A stretch of 64,000 nucleotides of DNA, from NCBI GenBank assembly GCA_964556485.1, contig CAZKVV010000001.1:148551-212550 (forward strand). The letters are read 5' to 3'. Of this stretch, positions 16,571 through 35,392 are shown in pieces. The number at the start of each line of letters is the position of its first letter. Positions within the stretch are counted from its first letter, which is position 1. A model generated the notes under the pieces. The model searched no databases. It was given only the letters and a program-made list of their open reading frames with translations, and was not told where the DNA came from. The stretch is from an uncultured Pseudomonadales bacterium. GTDB taxonomy: Bacteria; Patescibacteriota; Microgenomatia; UBA1400; PJMF01. Both the position numbers and the translations under genes were made by a program.

Positions 16571-16578
16571 GGAGAATT

Positions 16579-17640
16579 ATGAATATAATGGATATTTTGC
16601 AGCAGCTCGTAGACATGGAAGGCTCTGATGTCCACTTGGTGGTTGGTACACCACCGATGCTGCGTGTGCATGGCAAGTTGTTTCCGGTTGAAGGTGCGCC
16701 CGTCTTGGGTAAAGCTGAAGCCGAAGCGCTCATCCATCCACTCCTTACTCAAGAACAAAAAGATTACATTGGGGTTAATAAAGAACTTGACTTTGGCTAT
16801 CAGTTTAAAGATCATGGTCGGTTTAGAATTAACGTCTACCACGCTAAAAATGCGGTTGCCGCCGCCCTACGTTTAATTCCAAGTAAAATAAAATCATTAG
16901 AAGATCTCCAGCTTCCTTCAATTTTTCAAGATTTTACCAACTACAGACAGGGACTCGTTTTGATTACGGGTCCAACTGGTGAAGGAAAGTCCACTTCTCT
17001 TGCTGCGATGATTCAGCGCATCAATGAGACTCGTGCTGAGCATATTGTTACGATCGAAGATCCAGTTGAGTTTCTTTATACGCCAGTAAAGAGTGTGATC
17101 TCACAGCGCGAAATTAACCAAGATACGCATGGTTGGGACATAGCACTCAAATCGGTGCTTCGTGAAGATCCAGATGTGGTATTGATTGGTGAAATGCGTG
17201 ACTATGAAACAATTGCAGCTGCAGTTACTATTGCTGAAACAGGCCACTTAGTTTTTGCCACCTTGCATACCGCAACCGCTGCCCAAACGATCGACCGTAT
17301 CATTGACGTTTTTCCTGGTCATCAACAGGGACAAATTCGCCAACAACTTGCTGCTACACTGGTAGCCATTGCTTCTCAGCGCTTGTTGCCAAATACCAGC
17401 GGCGGACGCATTGCGGCACTTGAGATCATGGTTGCTAACCCTGCTATTCGAAATCTCATTCGTGAGGCTAAGACGCATCAGATCGATAATGTCATGCAAA
17501 CTTCAGCCGGTGCCGGAATGGTGCTGATGGAACATCACCTGCAACAGCTGGTTCAACGAGGCTCTGTGAGCAGAGACGTTGCTAAGGAGTATGCATTCAG
17601 AAAAGAAGATATTGATAGACTCTTAGGTATATCTGGATAA
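16579..17640 (+). CDS. pilT: twitching-motility / pilus retraction ATPase PilT
   Basis: MNIMDILQQLVDMEGSDVHLVVG, Walker A (ITGPTGEGKST) and AIRNLIRE motifs. 353 aa. Confidence 0.9.
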   Translation: MNIMDILQQLVDMEGSDVHLVVGTPPMLRVHGKLFPVEGAPVLGKAEAEALIHPLLTQEQKDYIGVNKELDFGYQFKDHGRFRINVYHAKNAVAAALRLIPSKIKSLEDLQLPSIFQDFTNYRQGLVLITGPTGEGKSTSLAAMIQRINETRAEHIVTIEDPVEFLYTPVKSVISQREINQDTHGWDIALKSVLREDPDVVLIGEMRDYETIAAAVTIAETGHLVFATLHTATAAQTIDRIIDVFPGHQQGQIRQQLAATLVAIASQRLLPNTSGGRIAALEIMVANPAIRNLIREAKTHQIDNVMQTSAGAGMVLMEHHLQQLVQRGSVSRDVAKEYAFRKEDIDRLLGISG

Positions 17641-17653
17641 ATAAAGTAGCATT

Positions 17654-18856
17654 ATGCCATTTTTCAAATACAGTGCAAAAAACAGGTTTTCAGAAAATGT
17701 CACGGGAAAAGTAGAAGCTCAGAGTATTGATCAAGCCGCTTCTCTACTTCAAAGTCGTGATTTGTTGGTAATTAAGTTATCGCCATTGACCGAAGAATCT
17801 TTTGCAGCTATCCGCTCAATGTTGTTTGGAGTGAAGTATGACGATATTGTCAACTTTACTCGTCAGTTAGCGACAATGATTACGGCTGGATTACCACTAG
17901 CAAATGGACTGTCAATTTTGGTTCGTCAAAGCAAGCCAGAAATGTCAAAAATGGTTGCAGTCTTGTTGCAAGATGTTGAAGGTGGAAATACTTTTGCAAC
18001 CTCACTAGAAAAGCATCGCAAACAGTTTAGTACTATCTATATTCAGTTGGTGCGCGCAGGTGAAACCGGCGGTGTTTTAGATGAAGTGCTCAACCGTCTT
18101 GCTGACAATATGGAGAAAGAAAAAGAGTTCCGTGGCAAAACCAAAGGTGCCATGATTTATCCTACCATCGTGATTATGGCTATGTTTGCCGTCGGAATTA
18201 TCATGATGATTTTTGTGATTCCAAAGCTTACCGAAATGTACAAAGATTTTGGTGCTCAGTTGCCGTTACCTACATTAATACTCATGGGTATCTCAGATTT
18301 TATGGTCAAATTTTGGTATATTATGCTTGTCGGTGGCATTGGTGGTAGTGTGCTTTTTGGCAGATGGCGAAAGACAAAAATTGGTCGATTAAAGTGGGAC
18401 CGATTTATGTTGCGCATCCCTATCTTTGGCGTCCTTCGTCAAAAAGTAGTACTGACTGAATTTGCTCGTACGCTCTCACTTTTGCTAGGTGCTGGCATCT
18501 CACTTTTACAAGCAATGCAAATCGTGACTGATGGTGTTGATAATGTGATTTATCACAATGCACTTGCAGACGCTACAAAAGAAATTGAAAAAGGTGTATC
18601 ACTTTCACAGGCGTTAGCACGCCACGATGACTTTCCTCCTATTCTGCATCAAATGATGAGTGTGGGTGAGGAAACAGGTAAGCTTGATGATGTGCTGTTT
18701 AAACTTTCTCGTTACTTTGAATCTGAAGCTGAGCAGGCTGTCAAAAATTTAACAGCTGCTATGGAGCCACTGATTATGGTGGTGCTTGGTGTAGGTGTCG
18801 GAGCCATGGTTATAGCCGTGATTATGCCAATCTATAACTTAACATCTCAATTCTAA
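17654..18856 (+). CDS. pilC: type IV pilus inner-membrane platform protein PilC (GspF family)
   Basis: Two GspF repeats and 3 TM segments. 400 aa. Follows pilB-pilT. Confidence 0.9.
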   Translation: MPFFKYSAKNRFSENVTGKVEAQSIDQAASLLQSRDLLVIKLSPLTEESFAAIRSMLFGVKYDDIVNFTRQLATMITAGLPLANGLSILVRQSKPEMSKMVAVLLQDVEGGNTFATSLEKHRKQFSTIYIQLVRAGETGGVLDEVLNRLADNMEKEKEFRGKTKGAMIYPTIVIMAMFAVGIIMMIFVIPKLTEMYKDFGAQLPLPTLILMGISDFMVKFWYIMLVGGIGGSVLFGRWRKTKIGRLKWDRFMLRIPIFGVLRQKVVLTEFARTLSLLLGAGISLLQAMQIVTDGVDNVIYHNALADATKEIEKGVSLSQALARHDDFPPILHQMMSVGEETGKLDDVLFKLSRYFESEAEQAVKNLTAAMEPLIMVVLGVGVGAMVIAVIMPIYNLTSQF

Positions 18857-18935
18857 GTAACGCTCCCGAAACAAATACGAATAAAATAGGTCAGAAAAAA
18901 GATTGATTTATAGCGTAAAACTAAAAGAGGTCAAA

Positions 18936-18964
18936 ATTAGCAGTCTGGCACTGAGACTGCTAAA
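18936..18964. repeat. hairpin element ATTAGCAGTC-N9-GACTGCTAA (copy 2 of 2), downstream of pilC
   Basis: Stem identical to the 13643-13671 copy; loop tggcactga. Confidence 0.6.
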
Positions 18965-19074
18965 AGCTTATAGCATACTTGATAGCCAAGTTCCCTACTT
19001 GCTAAGCAACCTCGATATGTTATACAGTGGAGACATACCAAAAAGTGCCTACGTAATAAGTACTAATTGAAAAG

Positions 19075-19752
19075 GTGCCAAATATGAGACTGTCTAAACA
19101 TTCTTTGTTATCAATACCAAAAAGTATGAGTGGTTTTACCATGATCGAACTACTGATCGTGATTGCCATTCTTGGTATTTTAGCTGTAGCCGTGCTTTCG
19201 GCCATTAATCCTGTCGAACAGATTAATAGAGGTAGAGACACTGGTTCACGTTCAGATGCTGAACAGCTCCTCAGTGCTGTAGATAGATTTAACGCTTTCC
19301 AAGGGTACTTCCCATGGGTCTCAGCCCCAGCAGACGATTCTACATTAGATGATGGTGCTGCTGGTCCATTAGTTGTCGACGATGCTTGGTTTGCGTATGA
19401 CGGTGGTACTCTAACAGACTGTCAAGTTCTAGACAGACTTGCTGAAGGTGCTGTCGGTGGTACTGATCCATGTACTGGTTCGCAAGAACTTAAGATTTCA
19501 TTCACGCAAAGAGTCACTGGCGGTTCGTATAATCCATTATTCATTTACAACCGAGGTGGTCAAGGTGACAGTACTTATGTATGTTTTGTACCTCAATCTG
19601 GAGCCTTTATTCAGGAAGCTGAAAACAGATGTGGCGATGAAGCTGGCGCTAATCTTCCAGGTGACTTAGCCCCAATTGCTGCTTCAGTATGTGGCGGTCA
19701 CTCAGCAGGTGCAGCACCTAATCCTGACAACATGATGGTTTGTTTACCATAA
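19075..19752 (+). CDS. type IV major pilin (prepilin-type N-terminal cleavage/methylation domain)
   Basis: G|FTMIELLIVIAILGILAVAV class III signal. Internal Mets at 19084 and 19126 are alternative starts. Cys-containing C-terminal region. Strong terminator immediately downstream. Confidence 0.8.
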   Translation: MPNMRLSKHSLLSIPKSMSGFTMIELLIVIAILGILAVAVLSAINPVEQINRGRDTGSRSDAEQLLSAVDRFNAFQGYFPWVSAPADDSTLDDGAAGPLVVDDAWFAYDGGTLTDCQVLDRLAEGAVGGTDPCTGSQELKISFTQRVTGGSYNPLFIYNRGGQGDSTYVCFVPQSGAFIQEAENRCGDEAGANLPGDLAPIAASVCGGHSAGAAPNPDNMMVCLP

Positions 19753-19776
19753 CAAACCTGTTCGTTTCGAAATTGA

Positions 19777-19806
19777 AACCAGCCGGTACTTCCCGGCTGG
19801 TTTTGT
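19777..19806 (+). terminator. Rho-independent terminator after the major pilin gene
   Basis: aaccagccgg-tacttc-ccggctggtt followed by TTTTG. Confidence 0.65.
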
Positions 19807-19831
19807 AGTATAAATGCTATACTAATAACCC

Positions 19832-20650
19832 ATGCTTTTTGCACCCTTTTTACTAGCATTACTCTTTTTCTTAGTCCTTGGTGCTGTGATTGGGAGTTTT
19901 ATCAATGTGGTAATAATTCGCACAATTGAAGGTGAGTCCTGGGTTGCTGGTAGGTCGCGGTGCGACCATTGCCGTAAAAACATTGCTTGGTTTGACAACG
20001 TCCCTTTGATTTCTTTTTTCCTGCTGAAAGGAAAATGCCGCTATTGTAAAAAAAATATCGCCCTTTCGCACCCCGTTGTAGAGGCACTCACCGCCCTCCT
20101 CTTTGTGTGGTGGTACATTGGTTTGTTTTTTTTCTTTAAACTTACGCAAGAACCATTTGTGGTTTTGCAGCCTCTCTTTTGGTTAACTGTCGCTGTGATT
20201 CTATTAATCATTTTTTTCACCGACTTGTTAGTCCTGCTTATTCCAGACAAGTTGGTTTTGGCGCTGTCTGTGCTAGTGGTGGTATATCGCATAGCTCTTA
20301 TCTATTCCGGCATCATGCAGCCACGAGATTTTTTCTTGGCTTTGATTGGTATGGTTGTGTTAGTACTGTTTTTCTTTGCACTGTGGTTTTTCTCTGGTGG
20401 TCGAGGTCTTGGTTTTGGCGATGTAAAACTGATTGCGCCGTTGTCACTGCTGATGGGTTGGCCTGAAATGATTGTAGGTGTATTCACTGCGTTTTGTACT
20501 GGTGCAGTCGTTGGCTTATTCCTCGTTGCAACAAAGAGACACGCCCTTAAACAACCACTGCCATTTGGTCCGTTTTTAATCATTGGAACGATTGTTGCCT
20601 TGGTTTGGGGAAATGAGGTTATTGCTTGGTATTTACAGCTTTTTAGCTAG
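19832..20650 (+). CDS. pilD: prepilin peptidase / N-methyltransferase (A24 family)
   Basis: N-terminal CxxC...CxxC zinc motif (CDHCRKNIAWFDNVPLISFFLLKGKCRYCKKNI), polytopic membrane protein, and a GFGDVKL catalytic-Asp region. Confidence 0.85.
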   Translation: MLFAPFLLALLFFLVLGAVIGSFINVVIIRTIEGESWVAGRSRCDHCRKNIAWFDNVPLISFFLLKGKCRYCKKNIALSHPVVEALTALLFVWWYIGLFFFFKLTQEPFVVLQPLFWLTVAVILLIIFFTDLLVLLIPDKLVLALSVLVVVYRIALIYSGIMQPRDFFLALIGMVVLVLFFFALWFFSGGRGLGFGDVKLIAPLSLLMGWPEMIVGVFTAFCTGAVVGLFLVATKRHALKQPLPFGPFLIIGTIVALVWGNEVIAWYLQLFS

Positions 20651-20700
20651 TTTCTGTTGCGGGGGTGACAACTGCCTTATAACTCGCTACTATAGTATGT

Positions 20701-21651
20701 ATGCGGATTTTGTTGTCCATGCTGAAAGTTTTTTTTGCACTGCTAGTGTTAGCTGCTGTGGTTTTGTTAATATCAAGAGAGGCATTACTGATTTCTGCCA
20801 CACACGTAATTACCAGCTCACTGGGAGAGTTGCAGCGTGCAGGCACAAAAGGTACACACATTGGTCAATGTCAGAATCGTGGCTTTGGTTTTATTGATGG
20901 CTCGGAAGCAGTGATGCAACTTCGCTTTTTGAGTGACACCGAGTTTGTTCTAGAAGTAAAGTGTTCTGAAAATTCAACTGAAGCAATTTTAATTTCGAGA
21001 AAGAATTTGCCCCCATTTGTTACGAAAGTGCAAGGCGGCTCTGGATTTCCACTGTTTGGCAGAAGTGCGATTAAGATTGAGGTATTTAGATCGTTTGAAA
21101 CGATGTTAAAGTCGGTGCTCTTTTTTGAGCCGACCTTTTTGCTTCGCAGTAAAACAATTGCTGCTGAAGATGGCTTTATAATTGAAGACTTCTCCCCTTT
21201 TGATTTTGAAAATGGTCCGATTACTTCTTGTAGTGGATATGGTTATTTTTGTTGTGACGCAGTGGCAGAAAAAGGTGCTGGTGAACAAATCATAGGATTA
21301 AATGGTTGCGAAGAACGCTGTTATGCCAGTTGTGTGGCTCGACCTCTAGTTCTTTCATTTACAACCAATCCGTTTTTTGACTTCAAAACAAGAAAATTGT
21401 CTCTGAGAAATGGTGAAACTGTTGAGTTCTCGTATGTAGTTGATACTCCAGCAGGGACTACAGCGACGGCAACATTTGATTTTGGAGATGGTGAAACTAG
21501 CACTGCCGAAGGTGAAAATGGAACAGTTAGTCATACCTATTCATGTCCTAATACCACATGTGAGTATCCAGCATCAATACAGGTTATTGATAATTGGGGC
21601 ATAGAGTCGATCATTTCAGATGTTAGCAAGCTGATGGTGGTTGTAGAATAA
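20701..21651 (+). CDS. secreted/membrane-anchored protein with C-terminal PKD domain
   Basis: N-terminal signal/anchor. C-terminal ATFDFGDGETSTAEGENGTVSHTYSCP is a PKD-domain signature. Confidence 0.6.
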   Translation: MRILLSMLKVFFALLVLAAVVLLISREALLISATHVITSSLGELQRAGTKGTHIGQCQNRGFGFIDGSEAVMQLRFLSDTEFVLEVKCSENSTEAILISRKNLPPFVTKVQGGSGFPLFGRSAIKIEVFRSFETMLKSVLFFEPTFLLRSKTIAAEDGFIIEDFSPFDFENGPITSCSGYGYFCCDAVAEKGAGEQIIGLNGCEERCYASCVARPLVLSFTTNPFFDFKTRKLSLRNGETVEFSYVVDTPAGTTATATFDFGDGETSTAEGENGTVSHTYSCPNTTCEYPASIQVIDNWGIESIISDVSKLMVVVE

Positions 21652-21727
21652 CTCATAACCCACTCCCCTTGCTTTTTGCCTGCATTTCTGCCTAGAATGA
21701 AGCTATATATATCAAGGGACAAGATAC

Positions 21728-22183
21728 ATGCACAAACTACTTCAAAAAAGAAATCGTGGTTTTACTTTACTCGAGCTATTAGTAGTTATTTCGATCATTG
21801 GTATTCTTATTGCAATCAGTGCTGCAGCATTCACAACAGCACAGCAAAAAGCTCGTAATGCAAAACGACAAGGTGATGTTAACGCAATGGCAAAGGCTTT
21901 TGAACAGTATTACGCTATAAACGGTAGTAGCTATGCCGCTACTTGTGGGGCAATGGCTGGTGCATTGCAAGGTGGCATCATACCCTCCGATCCCAAGACC
22001 GGTGTCCGATACGATGTTGGTGGTTCATGCGTATCTGACACTGTAGCAAATACCTACTGTGTTTGTGCTACTCTAGAGCCCACAGGCACAACTGCGGGCA
22101 ACAGTAATGCTACCGCAAATGCCACTTGCTCTGGCCTCTCAGCGGGGAGTGGGCAGTATTTCTGTATAAAGAATCAACAATAG
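21728..22183 (+). CDS. type IV pilin-like protein (prepilin N-terminal domain)
   Basis: RG|FTLLELLVVISIIGILIAIS. Confidence 0.8.
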   Translation: MHKLLQKRNRGFTLLELLVVISIIGILIAISAAAFTTAQQKARNAKRQGDVNAMAKAFEQYYAINGSSYAATCGAMAGALQGGIIPSDPKTGVRYDVGGSCVSDTVANTYCVCATLEPTGTTAGNSNATANATCSGLSAGSGQYFCIKNQQ

Positions 22184-22191
22184 GAGTATTC

Positions 22192-22647
22192 ATGAAACGC
22201 AAGAACACGCAAAAAGGGTTTAGTTTGATAGAACTCCTGGTGGTTTCAACAGTGATTATTGTGATTACAACTATTGGTTTAGTGAGTTTTACTAGCGCTG
22301 GCAAAGGTGCGCGTGATGGCAAGCGTAAAGCCGATTTGGAGGCAGTACGACAAGCCTTGGTGCTCTATAAAGCAGATGGCAACGCCTATCCAACTGGGGC
22401 TGGAACAAATGGTAGTTATGTTACTGTTTCTGCTTCTCTCATAAGTGCGGGCTATCTTAGCAATCCTCGTCCTGATGATCCAAAAAATACGGCTCCCTAT
22501 CAATATTCATACTATGCTCCTGCGACTGGCGATAGCTTTTGTTTATGTGCTTATGCGGAAGATGATGATATAGCCAACCAAAGTGCTACAAACTGCCCAC
22601 TGCTTGGTTTGAGCACGCCAGCATACTACTGTGTGCAGAATCCATAA
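22192..22647 (+). CDS. type IV pilin-like protein
   Basis: Start at MKRKNTQKG|FSLIELLVV (AGGAG RBS). Paralog of the preceding pilin. Confidence 0.8.
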   Translation: MKRKNTQKGFSLIELLVVSTVIIVITTIGLVSFTSAGKGARDGKRKADLEAVRQALVLYKADGNAYPTGAGTNGSYVTVSASLISAGYLSNPRPDDPKNTAPYQYSYYAPATGDSFCLCAYAEDDDIANQSATNCPLLGLSTPAYYCVQNP

Positions 22648-22650
22648 CGT

Positions 22651-23178
22651 ATGAGACTGCCCAAACTCAACACACGAGGATTTTCACTCTTAGAAATGAT
22701 TATTACTGTTTCGATAGTGTTGATTGTATTTGGTGGAGGTCTAGCAGCTTTTATTCGTTTTAACGACCGACAGCGCGTGCAAGCCACAGCCAATGATATT
22801 AAGCAGTTTATAAAAAGTGCTCAGACCAGAGCACGTGTTCGAGATAACCCCGATCAGGCTGGTTGTAACCAGTTGCAGGGCTATCGAGTGACAACAACTG
22901 GTTCGTTAGCAATCATGAATTTGTTATGTGGTGCCACAAAGTTTTCGAATGCACCAGGGATTCAGAGAGCAACGTATACCGTTCAAAGCGGTATTACTGT
23001 CACAAGCATGTCAATCAACTTTTACACTCTCGAAGGTTCTGCAAATGTTATTACACCAGCAGATAATAAGATTAGGGTGAATGGCACCAATGCCTACTAC
23101 TTGTTTAGAGTTGAAGAATCTGGAGAGATTACAGAGGGTTGTTTTGTGACTACAGCAACCAGTGATACGTGTCTGTAA
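22651..23178 (+). CDS. pseudopilin / minor pilin
   Basis: RG|FSLLEMIITVSIVLIVFGGG prepilin signal. Confidence 0.75.
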   Translation: MRLPKLNTRGFSLLEMIITVSIVLIVFGGGLAAFIRFNDRQRVQATANDIKQFIKSAQTRARVRDNPDQAGCNQLQGYRVTTTGSLAIMNLLCGATKFSNAPGIQRATYTVQSGITVTSMSINFYTLEGSANVITPADNKIRVNGTNAYYLFRVEESGEITEGCFVTTATSDTCL

Positions 23179-23191
23179 GAATATGGTGCAT

Positions 23192-23659
23192 ATGAAAAAG
23201 ATAAAGCGACTCAGGTTTCAAATGGGCTCCACACTGGTGGAGTTACTCATTGCCATGATGATTGTTGGCACCATTGTAACGGCTGTTGCAGCAGGAGTTA
23301 CTTCTTCAGTTAAGAACAATGCTGAAGCGAGATATCGTGAAGTTGCAACTAATCTCGGTCAAGAGGTATTGGAAGTGATGCGCAAAGAACGTTCTCAACT
23401 TGGATGGGTGCACTTTTATCAAGCCCTCTCTGGTACGCAGTACTGTGTACCAGCAGGAGTGCGAGATGTAACTGGTTTTCTATCCGGATCAAGTTGCACT
23501 GTTACAGAAGCAAATACTACTTTTAGTCGAATACTGAGCATTACTAAAACTGGAGGCAATGAGCTTTCCGCTACGGTGACAGTGACCTGGGTTAGATCAC
23601 CTGGTAACACGAGTCAAATTACACTTACACAAGAATTCAGGGAAGCAAGTAGAAACTAA
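23192..23659 (+). CDS. pseudopilin / minor pilin
   Basis: MG|STLVELLIAMMIVGTIV prepilin-like N-terminus. An alternative start lies at 23183. Confidence 0.65.
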   Translation: MKKIKRLRFQMGSTLVELLIAMMIVGTIVTAVAAGVTSSVKNNAEARYREVATNLGQEVLEVMRKERSQLGWVHFYQALSGTQYCVPAGVRDVTGFLSGSSCTVTEANTTFSRILSITKTGGNELSATVTVTWVRSPGNTSQITLTQEFREASRN

Positions 23660-24208: not shown

Positions 24209-27200
24209 CTAGTTTACTTCCTGCCAGATTAGTCCTGGGGCCATGAGGAGTTCGGGCGTCGTTTCTACAAAGTCAGGTCGATATACAAATACAGAGATTG
24301 GATTGAGGTTATTTAGTGCTGCGGAGAGCGCGTTTGATGTATTCGCATAATCGCGCGTGAGAGCAATCCCACTCCAACCTACAAATGTGCCAGCACCAAT
24401 GAATTTACGGTTCTGAATTGCTGGACTCACGTGTGATGCCACGGAAATACTACCATCTGCGACATAGACACCTTCAATATTGGTAACATCAGAAACTGGA
24501 GTAGTAGGATCTAAAAAGCCGACAGTTTCACTAATGGTGATATTTCCGCCAACAATAAATGCTACGTAGCCACCTTGTTCGACCTTGATTAACTCATCAA
24601 GATTATTGGTGTTAGAGATAGTAAGGTCATCACGAACAAAGATAATTCTTCTCTCCCCCGTAGCAATGCTTATTGTAGAAGCAACGTTTGGATCAATTGT
24701 TAAGCTGCCTTCACGATATGAGACTTGTGTGCCGTCGTTAGTATCAGTGAAGCCAACGGTGAGTTGCGTCTTGGTGTTAATGGTAGCGCTAGCAATCTTT
24801 GTCATGCCTGCAAGATCGAAATTGCGCGCAAAGTATGTGTAATCTTGCCTGAGTGCTCTCGAGAAATCAGCCCCTTCTGCTTTGTAGTTTGTCGAAGGTG
24901 GTGTGGCGCCTACATCTGATTCACGGTAATATCCAGCATTACTACTACCGCTACTAATAGTGCCAGAAGCTGCAATAGCTATTCCAGCAGTTTTGTTTGC
25001 ATTTGTCACATCCCTGATTGTAATGTAAGGCGTGCAGATTCCCGTGCCATCTGCAACACATTGATCGGTGATATTTGATACAACTCCGTTGTTGGTTGCA
25101 TAGATGAGCCCTCCAACTCCTTGCCACCATGGACCGTTACTAAGGTCGTATTGTTCGGCATAAAAAGTTACGCCGGTGCGTGGATTTGCTAGTCCTGTGT
25201 ATTGACAGGTAAAAGGATCTGCACCAGGAGCTGGACAAGCGCAGGCTGCGGTGTTAGTAATGTCTGAATTAGTGAAGGTTGAGCTAACAGTCACTGTCCC
25301 CCAGTTGCTCGTGGGTGTGTACGCAGCACCAGTGATGGTGTATGCAAAAGCTGCTCCATTGAAGTTTACATTTGCAGTTATTGGAGTAAAACCACCAGAA
25401 ACGGTACCAGTGACGACGGCAGTAACACCAGGAGCTGGGATTACTGCTGAGCCTCCATTACTACAGATTCCACCAACTATGCTATAACTACCATCTCCAA
25501 GGTAGATGCTCCCAGTCAGATTGGCGATTAAACTAAAGTCAGTAGCTGTTGCCCAGTTTCCATTCTGTGTACCGCATGACGTATTGCGAGCTCTGACGGA
25601 AAAACTGAGATCTCTGCCAGTAGCATACTCGTTTTGAACGTTCGAAATGGTGCGGTTGAGTGTTGAGAAAGTTACTGTGTCGTAGAACATTACATCAGCG
25701 CTGGTTGTACGAACTGCCCAGGCAGCTGTTGGGTTGGCAAAGTCGCCAGTATCCCAGACAATCACATCATATTCATCAACATAGCTAGCTCCAGTTGTAG
25801 GCGCACCCCAACCTAGTGTGATTTGGTTGGCAGTATTGGTCATATTGTATGCTCCTGAGGGAGTTAGATTTGTTGGTGTACCTGGAGTACCAGTTGGACA
25901 AGAAGTGATTTGAACAGGGATTGAACAAGTAGAGCAGTTATTGCTTGGATAGCACATTGCAACACTTGGGTTACCGCTACACCACTCGCCATCTTCGCCA
26001 TAAATATTGGCAGTTACCATATAATTCCCCGCACTCAGTCCGGAAATATCCCAACCGTGAGTGCCATTTGCACTGTATAAATAGTTAGAGTTGCTGGCGT
26101 TGTTCGCGGGTTGCCATGCTGGGGTTGGAGCACAGTAGTTGCCTTGCTGTGAAGTATAGAAAAAGCGGACGTTGGCAACGTCGGTTGTCCAATTTTTATA
26201 AAGCCTCACGTTATCATAATATACTGGCCAAGTAGTGCCGTTTGATGGAGGTCTAAGTATTACTCGTATTTGAGATTCATTGTAGCCCGGATAGTTGGTT
26301 AGACTGAAAGTATGTTCAAACTCCTGCCATTCAGAAGCAGATAGTGTAATTGGTGTTGTATACAAAGTTGAAGGCGGATTTGTCCAGTCTCCACCACTTG
26401 GGTAGGCTTGTATCTGCATGTTAACTGTATTAGCCGTTGAAGAGTGTGCTTTAGCCATGAATTTGAGAGTGAATGATCTGCCGTTTATGTTTTCACCAAC
26501 ATCAATAAAGTTGCTTGCTGCATATGAGTCTCCGGCTGCAGCCCTGGCCATAGCAAAATAATAGCGCCCGTCTGCCGGTGGGCCGTTTAGAAGTGAATCA
26601 GGAGTCCAAAATGCACCTAAGTTATGTTGTATCCACCCATTTGTATTAGCTAATTCGAATGAGTGATTGCCATCGCCAATAATGTAGCCATAGTTTGCGC
26701 CTTCGTAAAAAGAATCGACTGTAATTGGAATGGTGCCAGCGCTCACGTCATAGGTGCCTTGTGGAATGCTAAATCCTTCACAAATAGGGATGGTTGGCAT
26801 TGGATCGCCAGGATCTGGAATTGGTGGGCCTGTGACTTCTATTGTTGATGTGGCGCTACCTGCCATGTAGGTGCCAGGAGTGAGATTCATTTCGCAGCTG
26901 GCTGTGATGATTGCGGTTCCAGTGCTGATTGGAGAAATAACGGTTTGATATGGGGTTGTTGCATCGGAAGGAGATAGGACGCTAGCAACTCCTCCGTTGC
27001 TGTTTGTAAAATTAACTCTACTAACCGAGCCGCCTGTTGAAGTAACACTTGCAGTTAGCGTTGTGCTTGAGCCACCAACTGTGAGGCCAGCAGTTGTTGG
27101 TGAGAGAGTGACTGAGCAACTATTATTTGAATTACATGTGTTTCCACAGTCAACTGGACAGTTGCAGTCTGTTTCTTGTCTGCAAACTGCTGTTCCTTGT

Positions 27201-27823
27201 TCACAAATGCCATTTCCGCACCAGCCACAAGAGCCGCAAGTGCCGCAGTCTTGTCCACAACTTGAGCAGGTCTCCGGAGCCAAGCATAAGAGGTCGCCAC
27301 AGTATCCAGGTGGTTGTGGCGTGTTTGGAGGATTGCTTGGAGTTGGGGTTGGGGTTGGTTGGGGATTTGGAGGGTAATTGCAGCAACTGAGATCTCCACC
27401 CTGAGGTGAGAGAGTACTACAGTCTCCTTGAGTGCCAAGGCAAGTGCCTGTATAAGGCGCGGAGGGACCGCAGTTGCCGCCAACATTTGTACATGCTAAT
27501 CCACCGGCACTGCAGTTACCCGATCCTCCAGGGATGGTATACATGTTGCATCCATTTTTTCCTGGGGCATAGCTGTAACAAGTTCCCGATCCTCCATTTG
27601 TTGAGCATGTGTGAGGGTAATATTGTTGGTCGGTAGTATCATCATTGAGACAATGAGTCGTGCCATTTGTACAATCACGAATTCTCCAGTAGGTATTCGT
27701 ACCTGTGCAGGTTCCACCGTCGCCACATTGAGTGTCTGCCAATGTTTTACTTGGTACTAAAAAAAAGCTCGCTGCTAATAAAATGGCAATTAGTTGATGT
27801 AAAATGGCGCCTTTAGTTTTCAT
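24209..27823 (-). CDS. 1204-aa secreted Cys-rich multidomain surface protein, putative pilus-associated adhesin
   Basis: Signal peptide; Cys/Gly-rich N-terminal modules; PT-rich linker (PNPQPTPTPTPSNPPNTPQPP); Big-like beta-sandwich segment; jelly-roll/CBM-like and FN3-like stretches. No antisense alternative is credible. Confidence 0.8.
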   Translation of the reverse strand: MKTKGAILHQLIAILLAASFFLVPSKTLADTQCGDGGTCTGTNTYWRIRDCTNGTTHCLNDDTTDQQYYPHTCSTNGGSGTCYSYAPGKNGCNMYTIPGGSGNCSAGGLACTNVGGNCGPSAPYTGTCLGTQGDCSTLSPQGGDLSCCNYPPNPQPTPTPTPSNPPNTPQPPGYCGDLLCLAPETCSSCGQDCGTCGSCGWCGNGICEQGTAVCRQETDCNCPVDCGNTCNSNNSCSVTLSPTTAGLTVGGSSTTLTASVTSTGGSVSRVNFTNSNGGVASVLSPSDATTPYQTVISPISTGTAIITASCEMNLTPGTYMAGSATSTIEVTGPPIPDPGDPMPTIPICEGFSIPQGTYDVSAGTIPITVDSFYEGANYGYIIGDGNHSFELANTNGWIQHNLGAFWTPDSLLNGPPADGRYYFAMARAAAGDSYAASNFIDVGENINGRSFTLKFMAKAHSSTANTVNMQIQAYPSGGDWTNPPSTLYTTPITLSASEWQEFEHTFSLTNYPGYNESQIRVILRPPSNGTTWPVYYDNVRLYKNWTTDVANVRFFYTSQQGNYCAPTPAWQPANNASNSNYLYSANGTHGWDISGLSAGNYMVTANIYGEDGEWCSGNPSVAMCYPSNNCSTCSIPVQITSCPTGTPGTPTNLTPSGAYNMTNTANQITLGWGAPTTGASYVDEYDVIVWDTGDFANPTAAWAVRTTSADVMFYDTVTFSTLNRTISNVQNEYATGRDLSFSVRARNTSCGTQNGNWATATDFSLIANLTGSIYLGDGSYSIVGGICSNGGSAVIPAPGVTAVVTGTVSGGFTPITANVNFNGAAFAYTITGAAYTPTSNWGTVTVSSTFTNSDITNTAACACPAPGADPFTCQYTGLANPRTGVTFYAEQYDLSNGPWWQGVGGLIYATNNGVVSNITDQCVADGTGICTPYITIRDVTNANKTAGIAIAASGTISSGSSNAGYYRESDVGATPPSTNYKAEGADFSRALRQDYTYFARNFDLAGMTKIASATINTKTQLTVGFTDTNDGTQVSYREGSLTIDPNVASTISIATGERRIIFVRDDLTISNTNNLDELIKVEQGGYVAFIVGGNITISETVGFLDPTTPVSDVTNIEGVYVADGSISVASHVSPAIQNRKFIGAGTFVGWSGIALTRDYANTSNALSAALNNLNPISVFVYRPDFVETTPELLMAPGLIWQEVN

Positions 27824-28535
27824 GCAAACGAACTCTCAATGGAATAACTACTTTTTCATCAGAAAGAATGGAACTGACTTCTCCTGATTGAGAAAATTGC
27901 GAAGCATTTAGGTTGTAGTTTTTGAGTAGCTGGTGCATAAACTCATAGCCAGGTTGCAATTTATCAACTTCGGTGAGATCTTGGGTTGGATCAATCAAGA
28001 GTGTAACAAATGCTAGGTTTAATGGTCTAGTGTTGATAACACTATCAATGAGATTGTTGACACCTGCATCATCAAATGTGCCCTCAGGGTAGAATGCTTT
28101 TCCATATATCAGTGTTGATGTTTCATTTTCAATGTACTGAGGCACTTTATATCGTTCTACAAAGCCAAGGTTATTTTTATGGTTGCAATTCATCACCGAT
28201 CTGACTCTCCAGCCACCCTTGAGTTCGATTGTTTTCTTCTCAAAGCCAGTTATACGACATGGAAAGGTAACTTTATTTTCTGAAACATCCTTAATGAAGC
28301 TGCTTGAATCGTTTATATCAGAAATGTCAGGAAGTGTGTGCAAGTTGAGCGAGATGCTTGAAAGTCTATTGCTTAAATACGCAGAAACTAAATAGAAAAC
28401 CAAACCAAATAGTAGGATTAAAACAAACGGCAAAGTATACTTCACTTGATTTTTCACTCTACAAGTAATAGTACACCAAGTGACTAGAGACGACAAGCTA
28501 GTTTTTTTTGAGTCGTCTTTAGTGAACCGAAGCAT
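27813..28535 (-). CDS. membrane-anchored protein of the pilus-locus operon, unknown function
   Basis: Single N-terminal TM (YTLPFVLILLFGLVFYLVSAYL). Overlaps neighbouring genes by 11 to 17 nt, consistent with translational coupling. Confidence 0.5.
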   Translation of the reverse strand: MLRFTKDDSKKTSLSSLVTWCTITCRVKNQVKYTLPFVLILLFGLVFYLVSAYLSNRLSSISLNLHTLPDISDINDSSSFIKDVSENKVTFPCRITGFEKKTIELKGGWRVRSVMNCNHKNNLGFVERYKVPQYIENETSTLIYGKAFYPEGTFDDAGVNNLIDSVINTRPLNLAFVTLLIDPTQDLTEVDKLQPGYEFMHQLLKNYNLNASQFSQSGEVSSILSDEKVVIPLRVRLHEN

Positions 28536-30321
28536 TAACTAGCATTGGAAACATAAAGCGATACGAGAGGTCATCAATGACAACTTCAACTAACACTGAA
28601 TTATCACCTGTCTCAACAAAACTGCTGACGTCAGCGTCATATGCGGCTATCAAAGATGCGTAGATTTCCTCTTGCTCTGGGGTTATAGCACTATTTACAC
28701 TCGACTGGTTGAACGAAAGAAAGCTTACACTGAAAAACTCATTTTTTCCGGGAGTCAATGCGCTATTTACCATATTTTGCACAGCTGCATCATCAAAGGT
28801 AACTCCTTCTGGAAGATTAAATGAAAAATATCCGCCACCATCTTTAATTGCGATAACTTTGATTGTTCCGTCGTTCATTGTTTTTTCCATCCATGCTGGA
28901 ATAGAAATTGTTCGCTGATCACCGTTGCTGTCAAAATAGTTTGCATCAATTCGTGCTCGTACGGAAATATCTTGCAAATTGAAGCGCTCAAATGAGGTTC
29001 CCGCATGTTCTAAAATCATTCCATAGAATGTTGATTTTTCGAGTGGACCATTTGCAAACTGCTCTAAGAATAGTTCCATGATTCTTGCTTCATCGGCGTT
29101 TGCAGGTGTTCGCTCGTAAGTGTCTCTGGTTTCTTGAATTTGAGTTGATGTTATATCTACAGTTGGGGTCGCTGTTGGAGATTCTGGAGGGGTAACTTCA
29201 GTTGGTTCAATAGCCGGTTCAGTAGGCTCAACTTCTGGTGCTGGTAAACCTAGCATCGCTGCTCTTTCTGTCTCGTATTGTTCTTTGGTTACAAATACAT
29301 AGACACCTTTGTCTGGATCATATAATAAATAGTATTTTCCGGAAGTGTCTGTATTCGTCCATGTAAGTCCAAACATTCCTGGAACATCAAAAATTTCTTC
29401 GATGGTTGTTTCTCCATCAGGATCAAAAATTTCGTATTGAATATCTAGGTTGGATGGAGTGAGTACGCTACCCTCTTGATCACCTTGCACTTCGAGGCCT
29501 GTTACAACTGCACCTGAAGGGTGGGTGAAGATTAGGTATTGTGCTTGACCACCATCATCAAAACCACAGAGTAGTGCGTCATGCGAACCATATTCCGCAT
29601 CAGCAAAATTAGCATACTCATCTGTTCCTGGTAAGTTTCTAAATCTGAAAAATGGGTTTGCATCCCCTCCGAAGTGTGATAAAAATGCAGGATTTGAGAT
29701 GACTGCCTCGCTGGGTTTCCCTCCGGTAATACCAGTTTCAGCAAAGCACATCTCATAATACTCTTTTAATTCTGGGCTTAGTTCAGTCCAATCACCGCCA
29801 ATTACACCATCTGGAATTCTTGTTAATGCAACTTCTGCAGTTATGCTGGCAGGAGCTTCAAAAGTTGGTGTAGGGGTTAGAGGTATTGCTGTCTGAGCTT
29901 CAAAAGGAGTGGGAGACTCTTCTATTTGGACTGTTTGTGTTGGAAATGAAGTTACGCCAGGTTCAAGTGGTATTGTTGCGCAGGCTGCAAAAAAAACAAT
30001 AGTAATAATAATGAGTGCGAGAATCACTGCGAATCGAGATTCAGCATGACCATTTTCACTTTTTTTCTTAAGATCTATAAATTGAGTCGGATCACCTTTT
30101 AACAAATCGCCTATTGCTTCTTGTGCAGTTTCATTAATTGCTTCAATTTTCTCTGGTGTTAACCCTTGTTCAATAAGAGCTGCCTCAGCAGTTGCCGCAG
30201 CAGCTTCGAGAGAAGTAATAGCTGGTATTCCCGCAATACCTGCAAGGTCCGCAATGTCTACGGGGTGTGATTCTTGGCCTTCCAAGCCATTAATTGCAGC
30301 GAATTCAGCAGGTTGTGCCAT
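28519..30321 (-). CDS. bitopic membrane protein (about 115-aa cytoplasmic N-domain, TM, about 480-aa extracytoplasmic domain), unknown function
   Basis: Start set at MAQPAEFAAING. TM segment FAVILALIIITIVFFAACA. PT/PE-rich linker segments. Confidence 0.5.
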   Translation of the reverse strand: MAQPAEFAAINGLEGQESHPVDIADLAGIAGIPAITSLEAAAATAEAALIEQGLTPEKIEAINETAQEAIGDLLKGDPTQFIDLKKKSENGHAESRFAVILALIIITIVFFAACATIPLEPGVTSFPTQTVQIEESPTPFEAQTAIPLTPTPTFEAPASITAEVALTRIPDGVIGGDWTELSPELKEYYEMCFAETGITGGKPSEAVISNPAFLSHFGGDANPFFRFRNLPGTDEYANFADAEYGSHDALLCGFDDGGQAQYLIFTHPSGAVVTGLEVQGDQEGSVLTPSNLDIQYEIFDPDGETTIEEIFDVPGMFGLTWTNTDTSGKYYLLYDPDKGVYVFVTKEQYETERAAMLGLPAPEVEPTEPAIEPTEVTPPESPTATPTVDITSTQIQETRDTYERTPANADEARIMELFLEQFANGPLEKSTFYGMILEHAGTSFERFNLQDISVRARIDANYFDSNGDQRTISIPAWMEKTMNDGTIKVIAIKDGGGYFSFNLPEGVTFDDAAVQNMVNSALTPGKNEFFSVSFLSFNQSSVNSAITPEQEEIYASLIAAYDADVSSFVETGDNSVLVEVVIDDLSYRFMFPMLVNASVH

Positions 30322-30497
30322 TATTGCTTTCTGTTGGGAGTAAACCACATATTGTTTTATTAAATAGTGGTGTGGTAAACTTCCCTCTTCTTGCACTTAC
30401 TCTACCAGTTTTTGCGTGGTATTTGTATTGTACAAATCGTTCAGTATTTTACCACTGAGTCTTATAATATTGCAATGCGTAGCAGATGTGTAGGGAA

Positions 30498-31067: not shown

Positions 31068-31087
31068 TATTGTTTTGATAGTATATC

Positions 31088-31104
31088 ATACTTACTCAGT
31101 AAGT
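31088..31104. promoter_or_regulatory. 17-bp perfect palindrome TACTTACTcAGTAAGTA in the divergent promoter, candidate RHH operator
   Basis: Read directly. Centred about 26 nt upstream of the 30498..31067 start and about 50 nt upstream of the 31145 start. Confidence 0.5.
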
Positions 31105-31144
31105 AGCTTTGCTGCAAAAAGTGATACAATAACACTCACTAATA

Positions 31145-32188: not shown

Positions 32189-32235
32189 TAGAATTCCAGG
32201 TATATGTTATCCAATTTAATAAGGAATGCGAGATT

Positions 32236-32947: not shown

Positions 32948-33763
32948 ATGTCCAAAACACACCAAACTAATCGACTACAACACGCAAACGTAGTGTGTTG
33001 CGGCAACTCCCAATCTGGTCAAGTTGCTGTGGTTGTATTGCTTATCATGGTGGTATTACTCACCATTGGTCTGTCTCTCGCGGCCAGAACCACCCAAGAA
33101 GTCTTCCTTTCTCAACAACAATCAGATAGTGCTAGAGTATTTAATGCTGCAGAATCTGGCGTTGAAGAGGCTCTGAGTCAAAGTTTTGCTACCGGTGCCA
33201 CAAACGGTAGTCTCGTAGTGGACGGTATTGATGTTAATTACACGGTTAATACTCAAAGTCGACTCGACACACTCATTACTGAGGGTATGAGTGCTCACAT
33301 ACAATTAAATGGTTATGCTGGAAACATTACCATAGACTGGGCGCAAGAAGCCAACTGTGCAGACAGGGCATCGTTCATTGCGACAATTTTTTATGACGAT
33401 GCAGGAGTACTGAGATCTCAACACCTAGCCTTTGGACCACCAACAACTTGCGTCAATCATAACGATAACTTCCTCCAGGGTTCCAACTTGGCAGGAAATC
33501 CGTTCTATCACCGCTACATCATTAGTGGCGCTACGCTCCCAGCCAATTCACAATTTATTCGCCTCAAGCCGGTGTATGCAGATGCTGACATTTTAGTAAC
33601 TGGTAGTACTGGATTCCCAAGTCAACACAATACCATTCGTTCAACTGCTACTTACTCAGGTGGGGATGAACAGCGTAGTATAGAAGTATCGCGTAGTCTA
33701 CCTGCTGCACCAGCATTTATGGATTACGCACTGTATTCAGGAGGAAGCATTACAACGCCATAG
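32948..33763 (+). CDS. PilX-like minor pilin / pilus assembly protein
   Basis: N-terminus QSGQVAVVVLLIMVVLLTIGLSLAARTTQE resembles the PilX N-terminal domain; the rest is secreted. Confidence 0.6.
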   Translation: MSKTHQTNRLQHANVVCCGNSQSGQVAVVVLLIMVVLLTIGLSLAARTTQEVFLSQQQSDSARVFNAAESGVEEALSQSFATGATNGSLVVDGIDVNYTVNTQSRLDTLITEGMSAHIQLNGYAGNITIDWAQEANCADRASFIATIFYDDAGVLRSQHLAFGPPTTCVNHNDNFLQGSNLAGNPFYHRYIISGATLPANSQFIRLKPVYADADILVTGSTGFPSQHNTIRSTATYSGGDEQRSIEVSRSLPAAPAFMDYALYSGGSITTP

Positions 33764-33796
33764 CAAAAATACGTGTAGTATAAGAAAGCCTGCCCT

Positions 33797-34804
33797 ATGT
33801 CCACACTCGCCATCGATATCGGTTCCTATAGTATAAAAGCAGTCAGCGGTAAAGCTGGGGTCTCACCTCATGTTGATCGTGTTGTTGAAGTTTTTAATAC
33901 CACTGGACTTGCGGTCCCTACCGATGATCCAGCTCAAGAAAAACTAGCTGGTTTACTTGAATCTATCCTTGCAGACAATGACTTACCTCGCACAGATGTG
34001 AGACTCTCACTTCCAGAAACAGTTATTTCAACCAAGGTTATCAGCATTCCACCACTCAGTGATGCTGAGCTTGCTTCTGCCATTGGTTGGCAAGCGGAAC
34101 AACACATTCCGATTCCTCCAGAAGAATTGTCTCTCGAATATCAAGTCTTGTACCGTCCTGTCAAAAAAGACAAAGAAATGATGCGTATTCTCCTTGTGGG
34201 TGCTCGCAAACAAGTAGTTGAGCGCTATGTGGAAATGTTCCACATGTTGGGTATTGAACCATCATTGGTAGAAACACAGATTATTTCTATCATCCGCTCT
34301 TTGGTTTTCACCCCACAGGATCCTACAACTTTGGTCGTACACATGGGTGCTTCTTCTATGAATATGGCAATGGTTGCTGGCGGCGAACTTCAGTTTGTGA
34401 CGACTCACATGAATGGTGGTCAGTTGCTCTCTAAAGCACTCGAACAAACCATTGGTTTAGATCGAACACAGGCAGAAAAATACAAGCGCACCTATGGTTT
34501 AGATGAATCTCAGTTCCAAGGTAAAGTGAAGGCAGCATTACTTCCAGCAGTAAACGTACTCACTACCGAGGTAAAAAAGGCTGTGCAGTTTTATATTCAT
34601 GAGCATCCTCAAGATTCTGTCCATCGCGTTGTTTTATCTGGTGGGACTGCCGCACTGCCTCATTTTGTCCAACACATCACTCAAGAATTGGGTACTGAAG
34701 TACTTGTTGCTGCCCCACTTACTAATGTCGGTGGGACGCTTCCAGCAAATATCAATCCTCCTGCACTCGGCGTGTGTATGGGGCTGTTGATGAGAGAAGA
34801 TTAG
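33797..34804 (+). CDS. pilM: type IV pilus assembly protein PilM (actin-like ATPase fold)
   Basis: MSTLAIDIGSYSIKAV start and an ASKHA-fold pattern throughout. 335 aa. Confidence 0.85.
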   Translation: MSTLAIDIGSYSIKAVSGKAGVSPHVDRVVEVFNTTGLAVPTDDPAQEKLAGLLESILADNDLPRTDVRLSLPETVISTKVISIPPLSDAELASAIGWQAEQHIPIPPEELSLEYQVLYRPVKKDKEMMRILLVGARKQVVERYVEMFHMLGIEPSLVETQIISIIRSLVFTPQDPTTLVVHMGASSMNMAMVAGGELQFVTTHMNGGQLLSKALEQTIGLDRTQAEKYKRTYGLDESQFQGKVKAALLPAVNVLTTEVKKAVQFYIHEHPQDSVHRVVLSGGTAALPHFVQHITQELGTEVLVAAPLTNVGGTLPANINPPALGVCMGLLMRED

Positions 34805-34807
34805 CGT

Positions 34808-35386
34808 ATGTCAAGAGATATCAACTTTGTTGCTATTCGGCGCAAAAAGCTTACATCTGAGCAAAAGCGGGATAAAGTTTATTTTAGGTATGCCACATGG
34901 GGCGTCTTGGTTACTTTTGGAGTGATGCTGCTTATCGTTGGCGTGAGATTGTTTGCGGTTATACAAGTCAAGAAACTTACGGATACTCAAGCTTCAACAA
35001 AAAAAGCGATAATGGCGCAAGAGCAAGTCGAGAAAGATTACAATATTTTTGCTCACAAGTTAAAAGCGCTCTCAGAACTTTTTGGCCGACGTTTAGATAA
35101 ACAAGAAGCAATGGTGTTCTTTAGCCAGGCTTTTGGCCAGCATATTATCATTAGTGAGATTGATTATAGTGCTGAAGCTGACGATATTGTAACGTTTACC
35201 CTTACCGCCCCAAGTGTCTTTGATCTAGAAAATGTGTTTGCCATTTTGGAACGTCCCGATGTTTCTGAAAAGTACACTTCAATAGTAAAAAGTGGATTAA
35301 GTCGAGGCGGAGATGGGTTTTACAATATTAAACTTACCATTGCCTTGGGGAAACACAAGTTGCCTGAACCAGAAGTAACGGAATAA
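34808..35386 (+). CDS. pilN: PilN-like pilus assembly protein
   Basis: INFVAIRRKK N-terminus followed by a single TM. Follows pilM. Confidence 0.65.
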   Translation: MSRDINFVAIRRKKLTSEQKRDKVYFRYATWGVLVTFGVMLLIVGVRLFAVIQVKKLTDTQASTKKAIMAQEQVEKDYNIFAHKLKALSELFGRRLDKQEAMVFFSQAFGQHIIISEIDYSAEADDIVTFTLTAPSVFDLENVFAILERPDVSEKYTSIVKSGLSRGGDGFYNIKLTIALGKHKLPEPEVTE

Positions 35387-35392
35387 TACACC

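Follow-up and report, generated by a model that had tools for sequence, protein, structure and literature searches.

The DNA considered here is a stretch of 64,000 nucleotides (nt), hereafter the window, that corresponds to positions 148,551 to 212,550 of the forward strand of contig CAZKVV010000001.1 (assembly GCA_964556485.1), from an uncultured bacterium deposited under Pseudomonadales and placed by GTDB in the Patescibacteriota (Microgenomatia). One of its genes codes for a secreted multidomain protein of 1204 amino acids (aa) and belongs to a four-gene operon on the minus strand, in which a 625-aa membrane protein, a 240-aa bitopic membrane protein, the 1204-aa protein and a pseudopilin follow each other in this order. 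The operon is convergent to a plus-strand block of type IV pilus genes, and the large gene lies between this block (PilB, PilT, PilC, pilin, PilD, PKD-domain protein and minor pilins) and another one that codes for a PilX_N-like protein, PilM, PilN and PilO, a position that counts in favour of a role in the pilus. The coordinates of all these features are collected in Table 1.

Table 1. Features of the large gene and of its surroundings in the window.
Feature	Residues	Position	Strand	Basis
Secreted multidomain protein, 1204 aa		24209..27823	-	ATG-start open reading frame; homologues P0002, P0003
Sec-type signal peptide	1-29	27737..27823	-	Direct reading; like layout in most relatives
Cys/Gly-rich N-terminal region with PT linker	30-232	27128..27736	-	Cysteine count; N-termini of relatives
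Big_2-like immunoglobulin beta-sandwich	~233-335	26819..27127	-	Homology and AlphaFold2
CBM4/9/22-type jelly-roll module	~375-545	26189..26701	-	Pfam in homologues; Foldseek
Three further beta-sandwich segments	~546-860	25244..26188	-	AlphaFold2; Foldseek; Pfam in relatives
C-terminal domain, predicted beta-helix	861-1204	24212..25243	-	BLASTP, profile, alignment, AlphaFold2
Partner pseudopilin (minor pilin), 178 aa		23672..24208	-	Prepilin motif; Pfam; NCBIfam
Bitopic membrane protein, 240 aa (cassette gene 2)		27813..28535	-	Open reading frame; N-terminal transmembrane helix
Membrane protein, 625 aa (cassette gene 1)		28519..30396	-	Open reading frame; C-terminal paralogy to the 240-aa protein
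Type IV pilus block: PilB, PilT, PilC, major-type pilin (19075-19752), PilD, PKD-domain membrane protein, four minor pilins		14471..23659	+	Pfam
PilX_N-like protein (32948-33763), PilM, PilN-like, PilO/GspM-like		32948..36193	+	Pfam/NCBIfam matches

The open reading frame (ORF) of the large protein ends with a TAG that is immediately followed by the ATG of the pseudopilin ('...gaagtaaacTAGATGcca'), 8 nt downstream of a Shine-Dalgarno-like GGAAG motif, and its start is overlapped over 11 nt by the ORF of the 240-aa protein (ATGAAAACTAA). Both junctions, which had been pointed out in a preliminary description of this DNA, are indeed read in the sequence. A scan for promoters and terminators gave counts at chance level, and the two promoter-like sites found 5' of the 625-aa ORF are not regarded as evidence. 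The product deposited at NCBI for the large gene (P0001) has 893 aa and starts at M312. The 311 residues that it lacks (window 26888-27823, minus strand) comprise the signal peptide, the Cys-rich module and most of the Big_2 domain, and other family members have N-termini homologous to them, the signal peptide not excepted. Because these residues have such clear homologues, the deposited start is placed too far downstream and the long ORF is the correct one. Judged by the homologues of its N-terminal module, Big_2 domain, mid region and C-terminal domain, the 1204-aa ORF is a genuine gene.

The protein begins with a signal peptide (MKTKGAILHQLIAILLAASFFLVPSKTLA) that is of Sec type by direct reading, precedes the sequence DTQC and is probably cleaved between TLA and D. 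In most of the 151 listed relatives, too, a signal peptide is followed by a first cysteine, and no prepilin motif (G/A-F-[ST]-L-x-E) is present in the large protein or in any of these 151 relatives. The region that follows contains 28 of the 44 cysteines of the protein (within residues 31-232) and a PT linker at residues 151-172. Its residues 43-148 are 42% identical to the N-terminus of P0002 (for the N-terminal module the figure is 43%), with further matches to P0007, P0150 and P0006, the module being kept in a subset of the relatives; it is modelled by AlphaFold2 without confidence (predicted local distance difference test, pLDDT, ~30). The Big_2-like domain, modelled with a pLDDT of ~90, is 44% identical to the matching stretch of P0003, which carries a precomputed Big_2 match, and in P0084 the stretch aligned to the large protein is overlapped at its start by a Big_2 match above the cut-off.

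In the case of the jelly-roll region, the large protein itself scores 16.6 bits with CBM_4_9 (PF02018; E 0.011), below the cut-off of 25.9 bits, and homologues aligned over the same region exceed this cut-off (P0049 with 38.4 bits, P0077 and P0064 with 31.6 bits). The model of the region was matched by Foldseek to carbohydrate-binding modules (CBMs) of families 4, 16 and 22 and to a porphyran-binding CBM with TMt values of 0.6-0.72 (8xmz_A, 0.72; 2zex_A, 0.64; 4xup/4xuo, 0.61-0.62; 2y6j, 0.61), 3p6b following with 0.53, and the probability was 1.0 throughout. On the strength of this modelling, the module is a divergent member of the CBM4/9/22 fold, predicted to be of carbohydrate-binding type; compared with the CBM_4_9 families (CBM 4, 9, 16 and 22), it stands here without a recognisable enzyme attached. 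Beyond the weak CBM_4_9 match, the Pfam, NCBIfam and PDB sequence searches in which the whole protein and the C-terminal profile served as queries returned nothing. The next segments (AlphaFold2 pLDDT 60-94) consist of a Cys-containing sandwich (546-640), an FN3-like one (641-765) and one of the type that gives a CarboxypepD_reg match in one relative (766-860), the last two being kept immediately N-terminal of the C-terminal domain in many family members.

The preliminary description had recognised most of these parts. The signal peptide is Sec-type and common in layout to most of the relatives; the Cys/Gly-rich modules and the PT linker are present, all the strings quoted for the protein (CGDGGTCTGT, CSSCGQDCGTCGSCGWCGNGIC, VYYDNVRLY and ANVRFFYTSQ) being found in the translation; homology to P0003 and P0084 and the AlphaFold2 model agree on the Big-like sandwich; and the jelly-roll segment is borne out by the fold matches and by the homologues that exceed the CBM_4_9 cut-off. 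The proposed FN3-like regions fared less well: Foldseek matches them to immunoglobulin (Ig)/FN3 arrays, but the Pfam fn3 matches in the homologues are sub-threshold and the CarboxypepD_reg ones weak.

The last ~340 residues, which the preliminary description had not flagged, are by sequence comparison the part that defines the family. They carry the motifs CxCP, WWQ..GG, FV.GDL.I, GGF.AFIV.G.I, EGVY.ADG, KF.G.GTFVGW.G..L.RD and YRPD, a free WQEV-COOH tail, and the invariant charged residues R297-D298, R322-P323-D324 and E342 (domain numbering). BLASTP with residues 861-1204 retrieved P0002 (E 2e-38) and P0003 (E 1e-20), both of which are otherwise different in architecture. A word-indexed homologue search gave 3 matches, probably as a result of low-complexity words crowding the candidates, and a profile of the C-terminal domain was instead searched exhaustively against 1.84 billion cluster representatives (clusters at 50% identity). 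It matched 3,304 of them at E<=1e-3, of which 596 reached E<=1e-30. Among the 150 matches listed, nearly all carry the domain at the C-terminal end, and a W[QRK]E motif stands 2-3 residues from the C-terminus in 113 of 137 members. The carriers are mostly Patescibacteria, with some Chloroflexota, and every relative with a source name is called 'hypothetical protein' (Pacebacteria, Paceibacterota, Chloroflexi). No model for this domain was found in the Pfam and NCBIfam scans. DUF7305 (PF23981, cut-off 27 bits) does not match the domain of the large protein at E<=1; it is found at E<=0.001 in two of 40 relatives, one of them shown with 21.2 bits, below the cut-off, and one distant relative has a precomputed match.

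The N-terminal and middle parts differ among members while the C-terminal domain stays conserved: the Pfam scan of 40 family members gave F5/8 type C in four, CBM_4_9 in three, TSP1 and fn3 in two each, and Big_2 in one. As judged from these comparisons, the protein is a member of a distinct unannotated family, and the suggestion that it might represent a distinct class of adhesin is consistent with this separate family and with its C-terminal domain, for which Pfam and NCBIfam hold no model. The conserved terminal domain and the variable upstream modules suggest an architecture made of a docking end and a binding end. The large protein has neither a sortase signal nor a C-terminal transmembrane anchor, its chain ending 2 residues after WQE, and its retention at the cell must therefore run through protein contacts.

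The C-terminal model, built from a 20-sequence alignment, is beta-rich, with a mean pLDDT of 70; residues 130-300 reach 80-97 and the first ~130 are poor. Its top Foldseek matches in the PDB are beta-helices of the DUF3494 ice-binding type (for example 5b5h and 4nu2; E 4e-3 to 3e-2, probability ~1.0), the best of them covering part of the model only, with a TMq of 0.35, a TMt of 0.51 (range 0.45-0.51) and a root mean square deviation of ~10 A. A DUF3494 protein again came out on top in a viral structure library, ahead of tailspike depolymerases. The likeness to the DUF3494 proteins would consist of a beta-helix with a flanking helix. The difference lies in the sequence, in which the Pfam scans of the large protein, of 40 members and of the C-terminal profile gave no DUF3494 match.

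The family also comprises several variants. P0003 (L002, 2827-5049) has a Hint/intein-like domain (PF01079) near its N-terminus. In P0081, a loop of the beta-helix domain contains an inserted segment with the appearance of an F5/8 type C (discoidin) domain, and the loop between ...NTVG and VEGVY... appears for this reason to tolerate a large insertion. In seven loci, L018 (9134-12329), L023, L028, L029, L034, L035 and L039, two family genes in tandem (~615-680 aa, then ~440-470 aa) precede the pseudopilin, and the pilin-proximal copy has [FN][YI][LA]RE[IVL]QP[KR] (for example FYLRELQPK) in place of the WQE motif of the tail.

The partner of the large gene is a pseudopilin with the prepilin site KQHG/FTLIELMIV (the slash marks the site) and, after it, a hydrophobic helix with Glu5; it is recognised by PF07963 (29.5 bits, cut-off 21.2) and by TIGR02532 (24.6 bits, cut-off 16.3). 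Its match to solved pilins is confined to the N-terminal helix, which is also all that its NCBIfam matches to GspH/GspJ-type models span. The conservation of the pair was followed in 53 loci, obtained by scanning one genome per species and belonging mostly to Patescibacteria (Pacebacteria, Paceibacterota, Microgenomates) and to a few Chloroflexota; many of the third-party (TPA) assemblies among them are titled 'Pseudomonadales', and these labels were treated as unreliable. The window contains no rRNA, and its own taxon was deduced from the nearest of these loci. An orthologous pseudopilin of ~165-195 aa follows the family gene on the same strand in 24 of the 53, with the prepilin motif GF[TS]L[IL]E in 15 and AFTL[LI]E in 9. 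All these 24 share one super-locus layout, both pilus blocks being kept around the cassette in the related pilus loci, and five further loci have pilus genes nearby. The reverse test, in which 29 metagenome loci were anchored on the globular part of the pseudopilin, found the family gene immediately upstream in 13 and within 4 kb in 4 more, 6 being too short to judge. The coupling to a pseudopilin that had been noticed in this single stretch is by both counts conserved across many genomes.

Where it was measured, the gap between the family gene and the pseudopilin gene extends from -35 to +61 nt, and one locus has an intervening gene. In the window the two genes are in one reading frame with TAG alone between them (24206-24211, minus strand). 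An adhesin-prepilin fusion produced by stop-codon read-through was considered and rejected, the gaps elsewhere being mostly not multiples of three; for the same reason the shared frame is probably incidental. Among the 151 listed relatives there is no natural fusion of the family domain to a pilin. The pseudopilin also occurs in pilus loci without the family gene; it is therefore a core minor pilin, and the adhesin cassette that precedes it is a frequent but optional addition. Six pilus super-loci (L056, L057, L060, L064, L065 and L073) represent minimal versions of the system, with the pseudopilin and no family gene or cassette within 6 kb.

Directly upstream of the family gene, and on the same strand, most of 55 loci have a pair of genes for proteins of ~500-770 aa and ~170-240 aa, the smaller of which has a short basic N-terminus, one transmembrane helix and an outside domain. 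The C-terminal ~130 aa of the 625-aa protein are paralogous to the 240-aa protein (E 8e-5), and the same holds in L001 (E 2e-21). Pfam and NCBIfam gave no match for the 240-aa protein, nor Pfam for the upstream counterparts; in BLASTP the 625-aa and 240-aa proteins showed no similarity to the proteins that occupy the corresponding positions of L001 and L002; and hhalign comparisons of the upstream proteins between subgroups remained at or below 20% probability, homology being demonstrable within subgroups only. Homology of the upstream proteins to their positional counterparts elsewhere was rejected on these grounds, and what is conserved is position, size and topology only. A different arrangement is found in a 3.7-Mb contig of an Aggregatilineales genome (Chloroflexota; CBDCER010000003.1), where three family paralogues (L009, L010 and L011) occupy separate sites, each after an ORF of ~296-319 aa and two of them also after one of ~140 aa, which replace the pair of the Patescibacteria; no pilus genes lie within 10 kb of these three.

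The interpretation that we favour, and to which we give an even chance, is that of a PilY1-like adhesin associated with the pilus through a new docking domain. In the model that we propose, in which each contact between proteins and each position on the pilus is put forward conditionally, the adhesin would be exported by Sec and would fold with the formation of many disulfides. The two membrane-anchored proteins of the cassette would then hold the soluble adhesin at the membrane, a tethering that we propose because no periplasm confines it. The C-terminal beta-helix domain with its free WQEV tail, the putative docking end, would bind the co-translated minor pilin, by which it would be linked to the minor-pilin priming complex, and the extension of the pilus would carry the adhesin outward, as it does PilY1 in Pseudomonas and Myxococcus. 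The N-terminal and middle part, the putative binding end, would finally bring the CBM and the other modules into contact with the glycans of a host cell or of a surface.

The resemblance to PilY1/PilC of Pseudomonas, Myxococcus and Neisseria lies in a large Sec-exported non-pilin encoded with minor pilins of the type IVa pilus (T4aP) type. PilY1, a proposed tip adhesin, has a variable N-terminal binding part and a conserved C-terminus that sits on the minor-pilin priming complex. With its Sec signal, and in view of the lack of a prepilin motif in the 151 listed relatives, the large protein would likewise be a non-pilin partner. The C-terminus of PilY1 is nevertheless a beta-propeller and that of the large protein a predicted beta-helix, with no relation in sequence or fold. 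A search for PF05567 (PilY1/PilC) gave no match at E<=1 in the large protein, the scan of 40 family members gave none either, and the PDB Foldseek matches of the C-terminal model include no propeller. The absence of a PilY1 propeller that had been noted from the sequence is confirmed by these searches and, the defining domain having been tested for and found absent, the protein is not a member of the PilY1/PilC family. Unlike the gene of PilY1, the large gene is start-stop coupled to one dedicated pilin, comes after two membrane proteins, and belongs to a host without outer membrane or periplasm.

Other surface proteins are comparable in part. ComZ of Thermus thermophilus (6qvi) is a tip-associated beta-solenoid protein that works with a partner minor pilin, but its solenoid is inserted in a pilin fold and binds DNA, and the Foldseek match is not significant (E 2.1). 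The tapirins of Caldicellulosiruptor (6n2b) are surface carbohydrate-binding proteins with a C-terminal beta-helix, encoded beside a type IV pilus locus; in their case it is the beta-helix itself that binds cellulose, the Foldseek match is again not significant (E 2.3), and no pseudopilin is known to be coupled to them. In the same phylum-level group, the saccharibacterium TM7x has two large lectin-like proteins in its pilus loci, PilX1 and PilX2, the second of which is required for efficient host binding and has been proposed as a tip adhesin with glycan specificity (PMC11623550). The likeness is that of the largest proteins of their pilus loci, with lectin- or jelly-roll-like binding domains. 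PilX1 and PilX2 are described as modular pilins with an N-terminal hydrophobic helix, a pilin domain and a C-terminal binding domain, whereas the large protein has a Sec signal, no pilin part and N-terminal binding modules, its pilin being a separate gene. The Sec signal and the separate pilin ORF also rule out that it is itself a modular (fused) type IV pilin of the type of S. sanguinis PilB or TM7x PilX1/X2.

A number of observations weigh against a function in the pilus. No pilus gene is present in the flank (<=10 kb; some contigs are short) of 24 of the 53 related loci (~45%), including all those of the Chloroflexota, and 6 of the 29 pseudopilin-anchored loci have pilus genes and no family gene. 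The locus sample was moreover drawn with motifs of the large protein's own subgroup, and the pairing frequencies are for this reason not those of the whole family. Most of the pilus-free loci still keep the two upstream proteins, which are found with the family gene in a larger number of loci than the pilin is, and the universal partner of the domain may consequently be these proteins and not the pilin. Furthermore, the assignment of the C-terminal domain to the beta-helix fold is a modest one that comes from a model. The preliminary description had proposed a pilus-tip adhesin or a carbohydrate-binding surface protein: the Sec secretion, the multidomain structure and the CBM-type module agree with it, and what points to a physical link with the pilus and to a location at its tip is the order of the genes by itself.

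With so large a fraction of the loci devoid of pilus genes, a direct anchoring to the cell surface is a live, if rather unlikely, alternative: in a surface adhesin or surface-layer-type protein off the pilus, the beta-helix would dock on the ectodomains of the two membrane proteins of the cassette, and the adjacency to the pilus genes would reflect co-regulation of contact functions or a convenient site of insertion. The presence of the upstream pair (the smaller protein with its one transmembrane helix) in most loci, including those without pilus genes within 10 kb, the three paralogues scattered in one Aggregatilineales genome and the resemblance of the mid-region, by Foldseek, to Ig-array surface proteins such as the S-layer protein SbsB all agree with it. 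Such an anchoring leaves unexplained, however, the start-stop coupling to an orthologous minor pilin in 24 loci and the family gene directly upstream in 13 pilin-anchored loci, and the homology of the supposed anchors holds within subgroups only. Much less probable is a secreted or surface enzyme in which the beta-helix would be a polysaccharide lyase or hydrolase, similar to pectate-lyase or tailspike folds, targeted by its CBM and employed against the cell-wall polymers of a host. It is to glycan-active enzymes that CBMs are as a rule attached, some R, D and E residues of the C-terminal domain are invariant, and Foldseek matches it weakly to polygalacturonase and to alginate lyase (E 3.8-7.4). 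Yet the best folds, in the PDB and in the viral library, are the non-enzymatic DUF3494 helices, far ahead of the lyase and tailspike matches; no enzyme family of Pfam or NCBIfam is matched by the large protein, and none appears in the Pfam scan of 40 members; the invariant charged residues lie, as far as the secondary-structure map shows, in the C-terminal cap and tail and not along the groove of the helix; and the conservation of the domain sequence while the binding modules change would be unusual for a substrate-specific enzyme.

Type IV pili share machinery with type II secretion systems, and the substrates of the latter carry a Sec signal. The protein could hence be imagined as the cargo of a type II-secretion-like pilus machine, released through the cell wall or S-layer by a short pseudopilin piston, a scheme with which the gene coupling to a pseudopilin and the GspH/GspJ-type NCBIfam matches, limited to the N-terminal helix, would be in keeping. 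We hold it for the most improbable of all, for PilT is present in the locus together with a complete T4aP-like set that includes PilM, PilN and PilO, no outer membrane or secretin is expected in the phylum (10.1101/335083), and the fusion of a conserved docking-type terminal domain to differing binding modules is more easily reconciled with an adhesin that is retained than with a cargo that is released.

The Patescibacteria (candidate phyla radiation, CPR) lead a life of attachment to other microbes, and type IV pili occur in nearly all of them. A host-recognising pilus protein is known only for one cultured Saccharibacterium (PMC11623550). The present observations add a large unannotated family (3,304 clusters) with a conserved docking-type domain, swappable modules and a minor-pilin pairing in many genomes. 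If, as seems to us an evenly balanced proposition, the protein is a pilus-associated adhesin with a new, widespread and unannotated docking domain and its own cassette, it would fulfil a known function with a different fold. It would then offer a second answer to the PilY1 problem, unrelated in structure to the first, a sequence handle by which the specificity of uncultured episymbionts for hosts or ligands might be predicted from metagenomes, and a concrete target for binding and cryo-electron tomography work. Could it be part of a plug-in adhesin system common to the whole phylum of these ultrasmall episymbiotic bacteria? In this more ambitious and tentative proposal, which may well be wrong, a three-gene cassette (two membrane tethers and a Sec-exported protein with the new beta-helix domain as its universal docking end) would load exchangeable modules (CBM, discoidin, TSP1, Ig) on the type IV pilus via one dedicated minor pilin, would replace the PilY1 function in the absence of an outer membrane and would largely determine which host cell is grabbed. 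If the protein is instead anchored by the two membrane proteins, the cassette would constitute a new surface-display system in Patescibacteria.

Some neighbouring genes of the window also deserve mention. A Cys-rich membrane protein of 316 aa with a PKD domain (20701-21651, plus strand) is encoded between PilD and the minor pilins. Its homologues, 24 ORFs across the related loci, adjoin PilD wherever both genes are detected, a vicinity so consistent that the protein seems to be a core component, as yet uncharacterised, of this pilus system. The 271-aa PilX_N-like protein at the head of the other pilus block (32948-33763, plus strand), whose PilX_N match is weak (E 3e-4, below the cut-off), has one N-terminal hydrophobic helix and no canonical prepilin site, and is kept beside PilM in ~20 loci. 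Finally, two paralogous ORFs of the nucleoside 2-deoxyribosyltransferase type (30498-31067, minus strand, and 32236-32799, plus strand, the latter with a PF05014 match at E 3e-6) flank a 347-aa ORF without Pfam match, in the region of lowest GC content of the window (30498-32799, 35%). ORFs of the same family, of 187-193 aa, are found upstream of the cassette in L003, L008, L012, L014 and L021; L012 also contains a counterpart of the 347-aa ORF.

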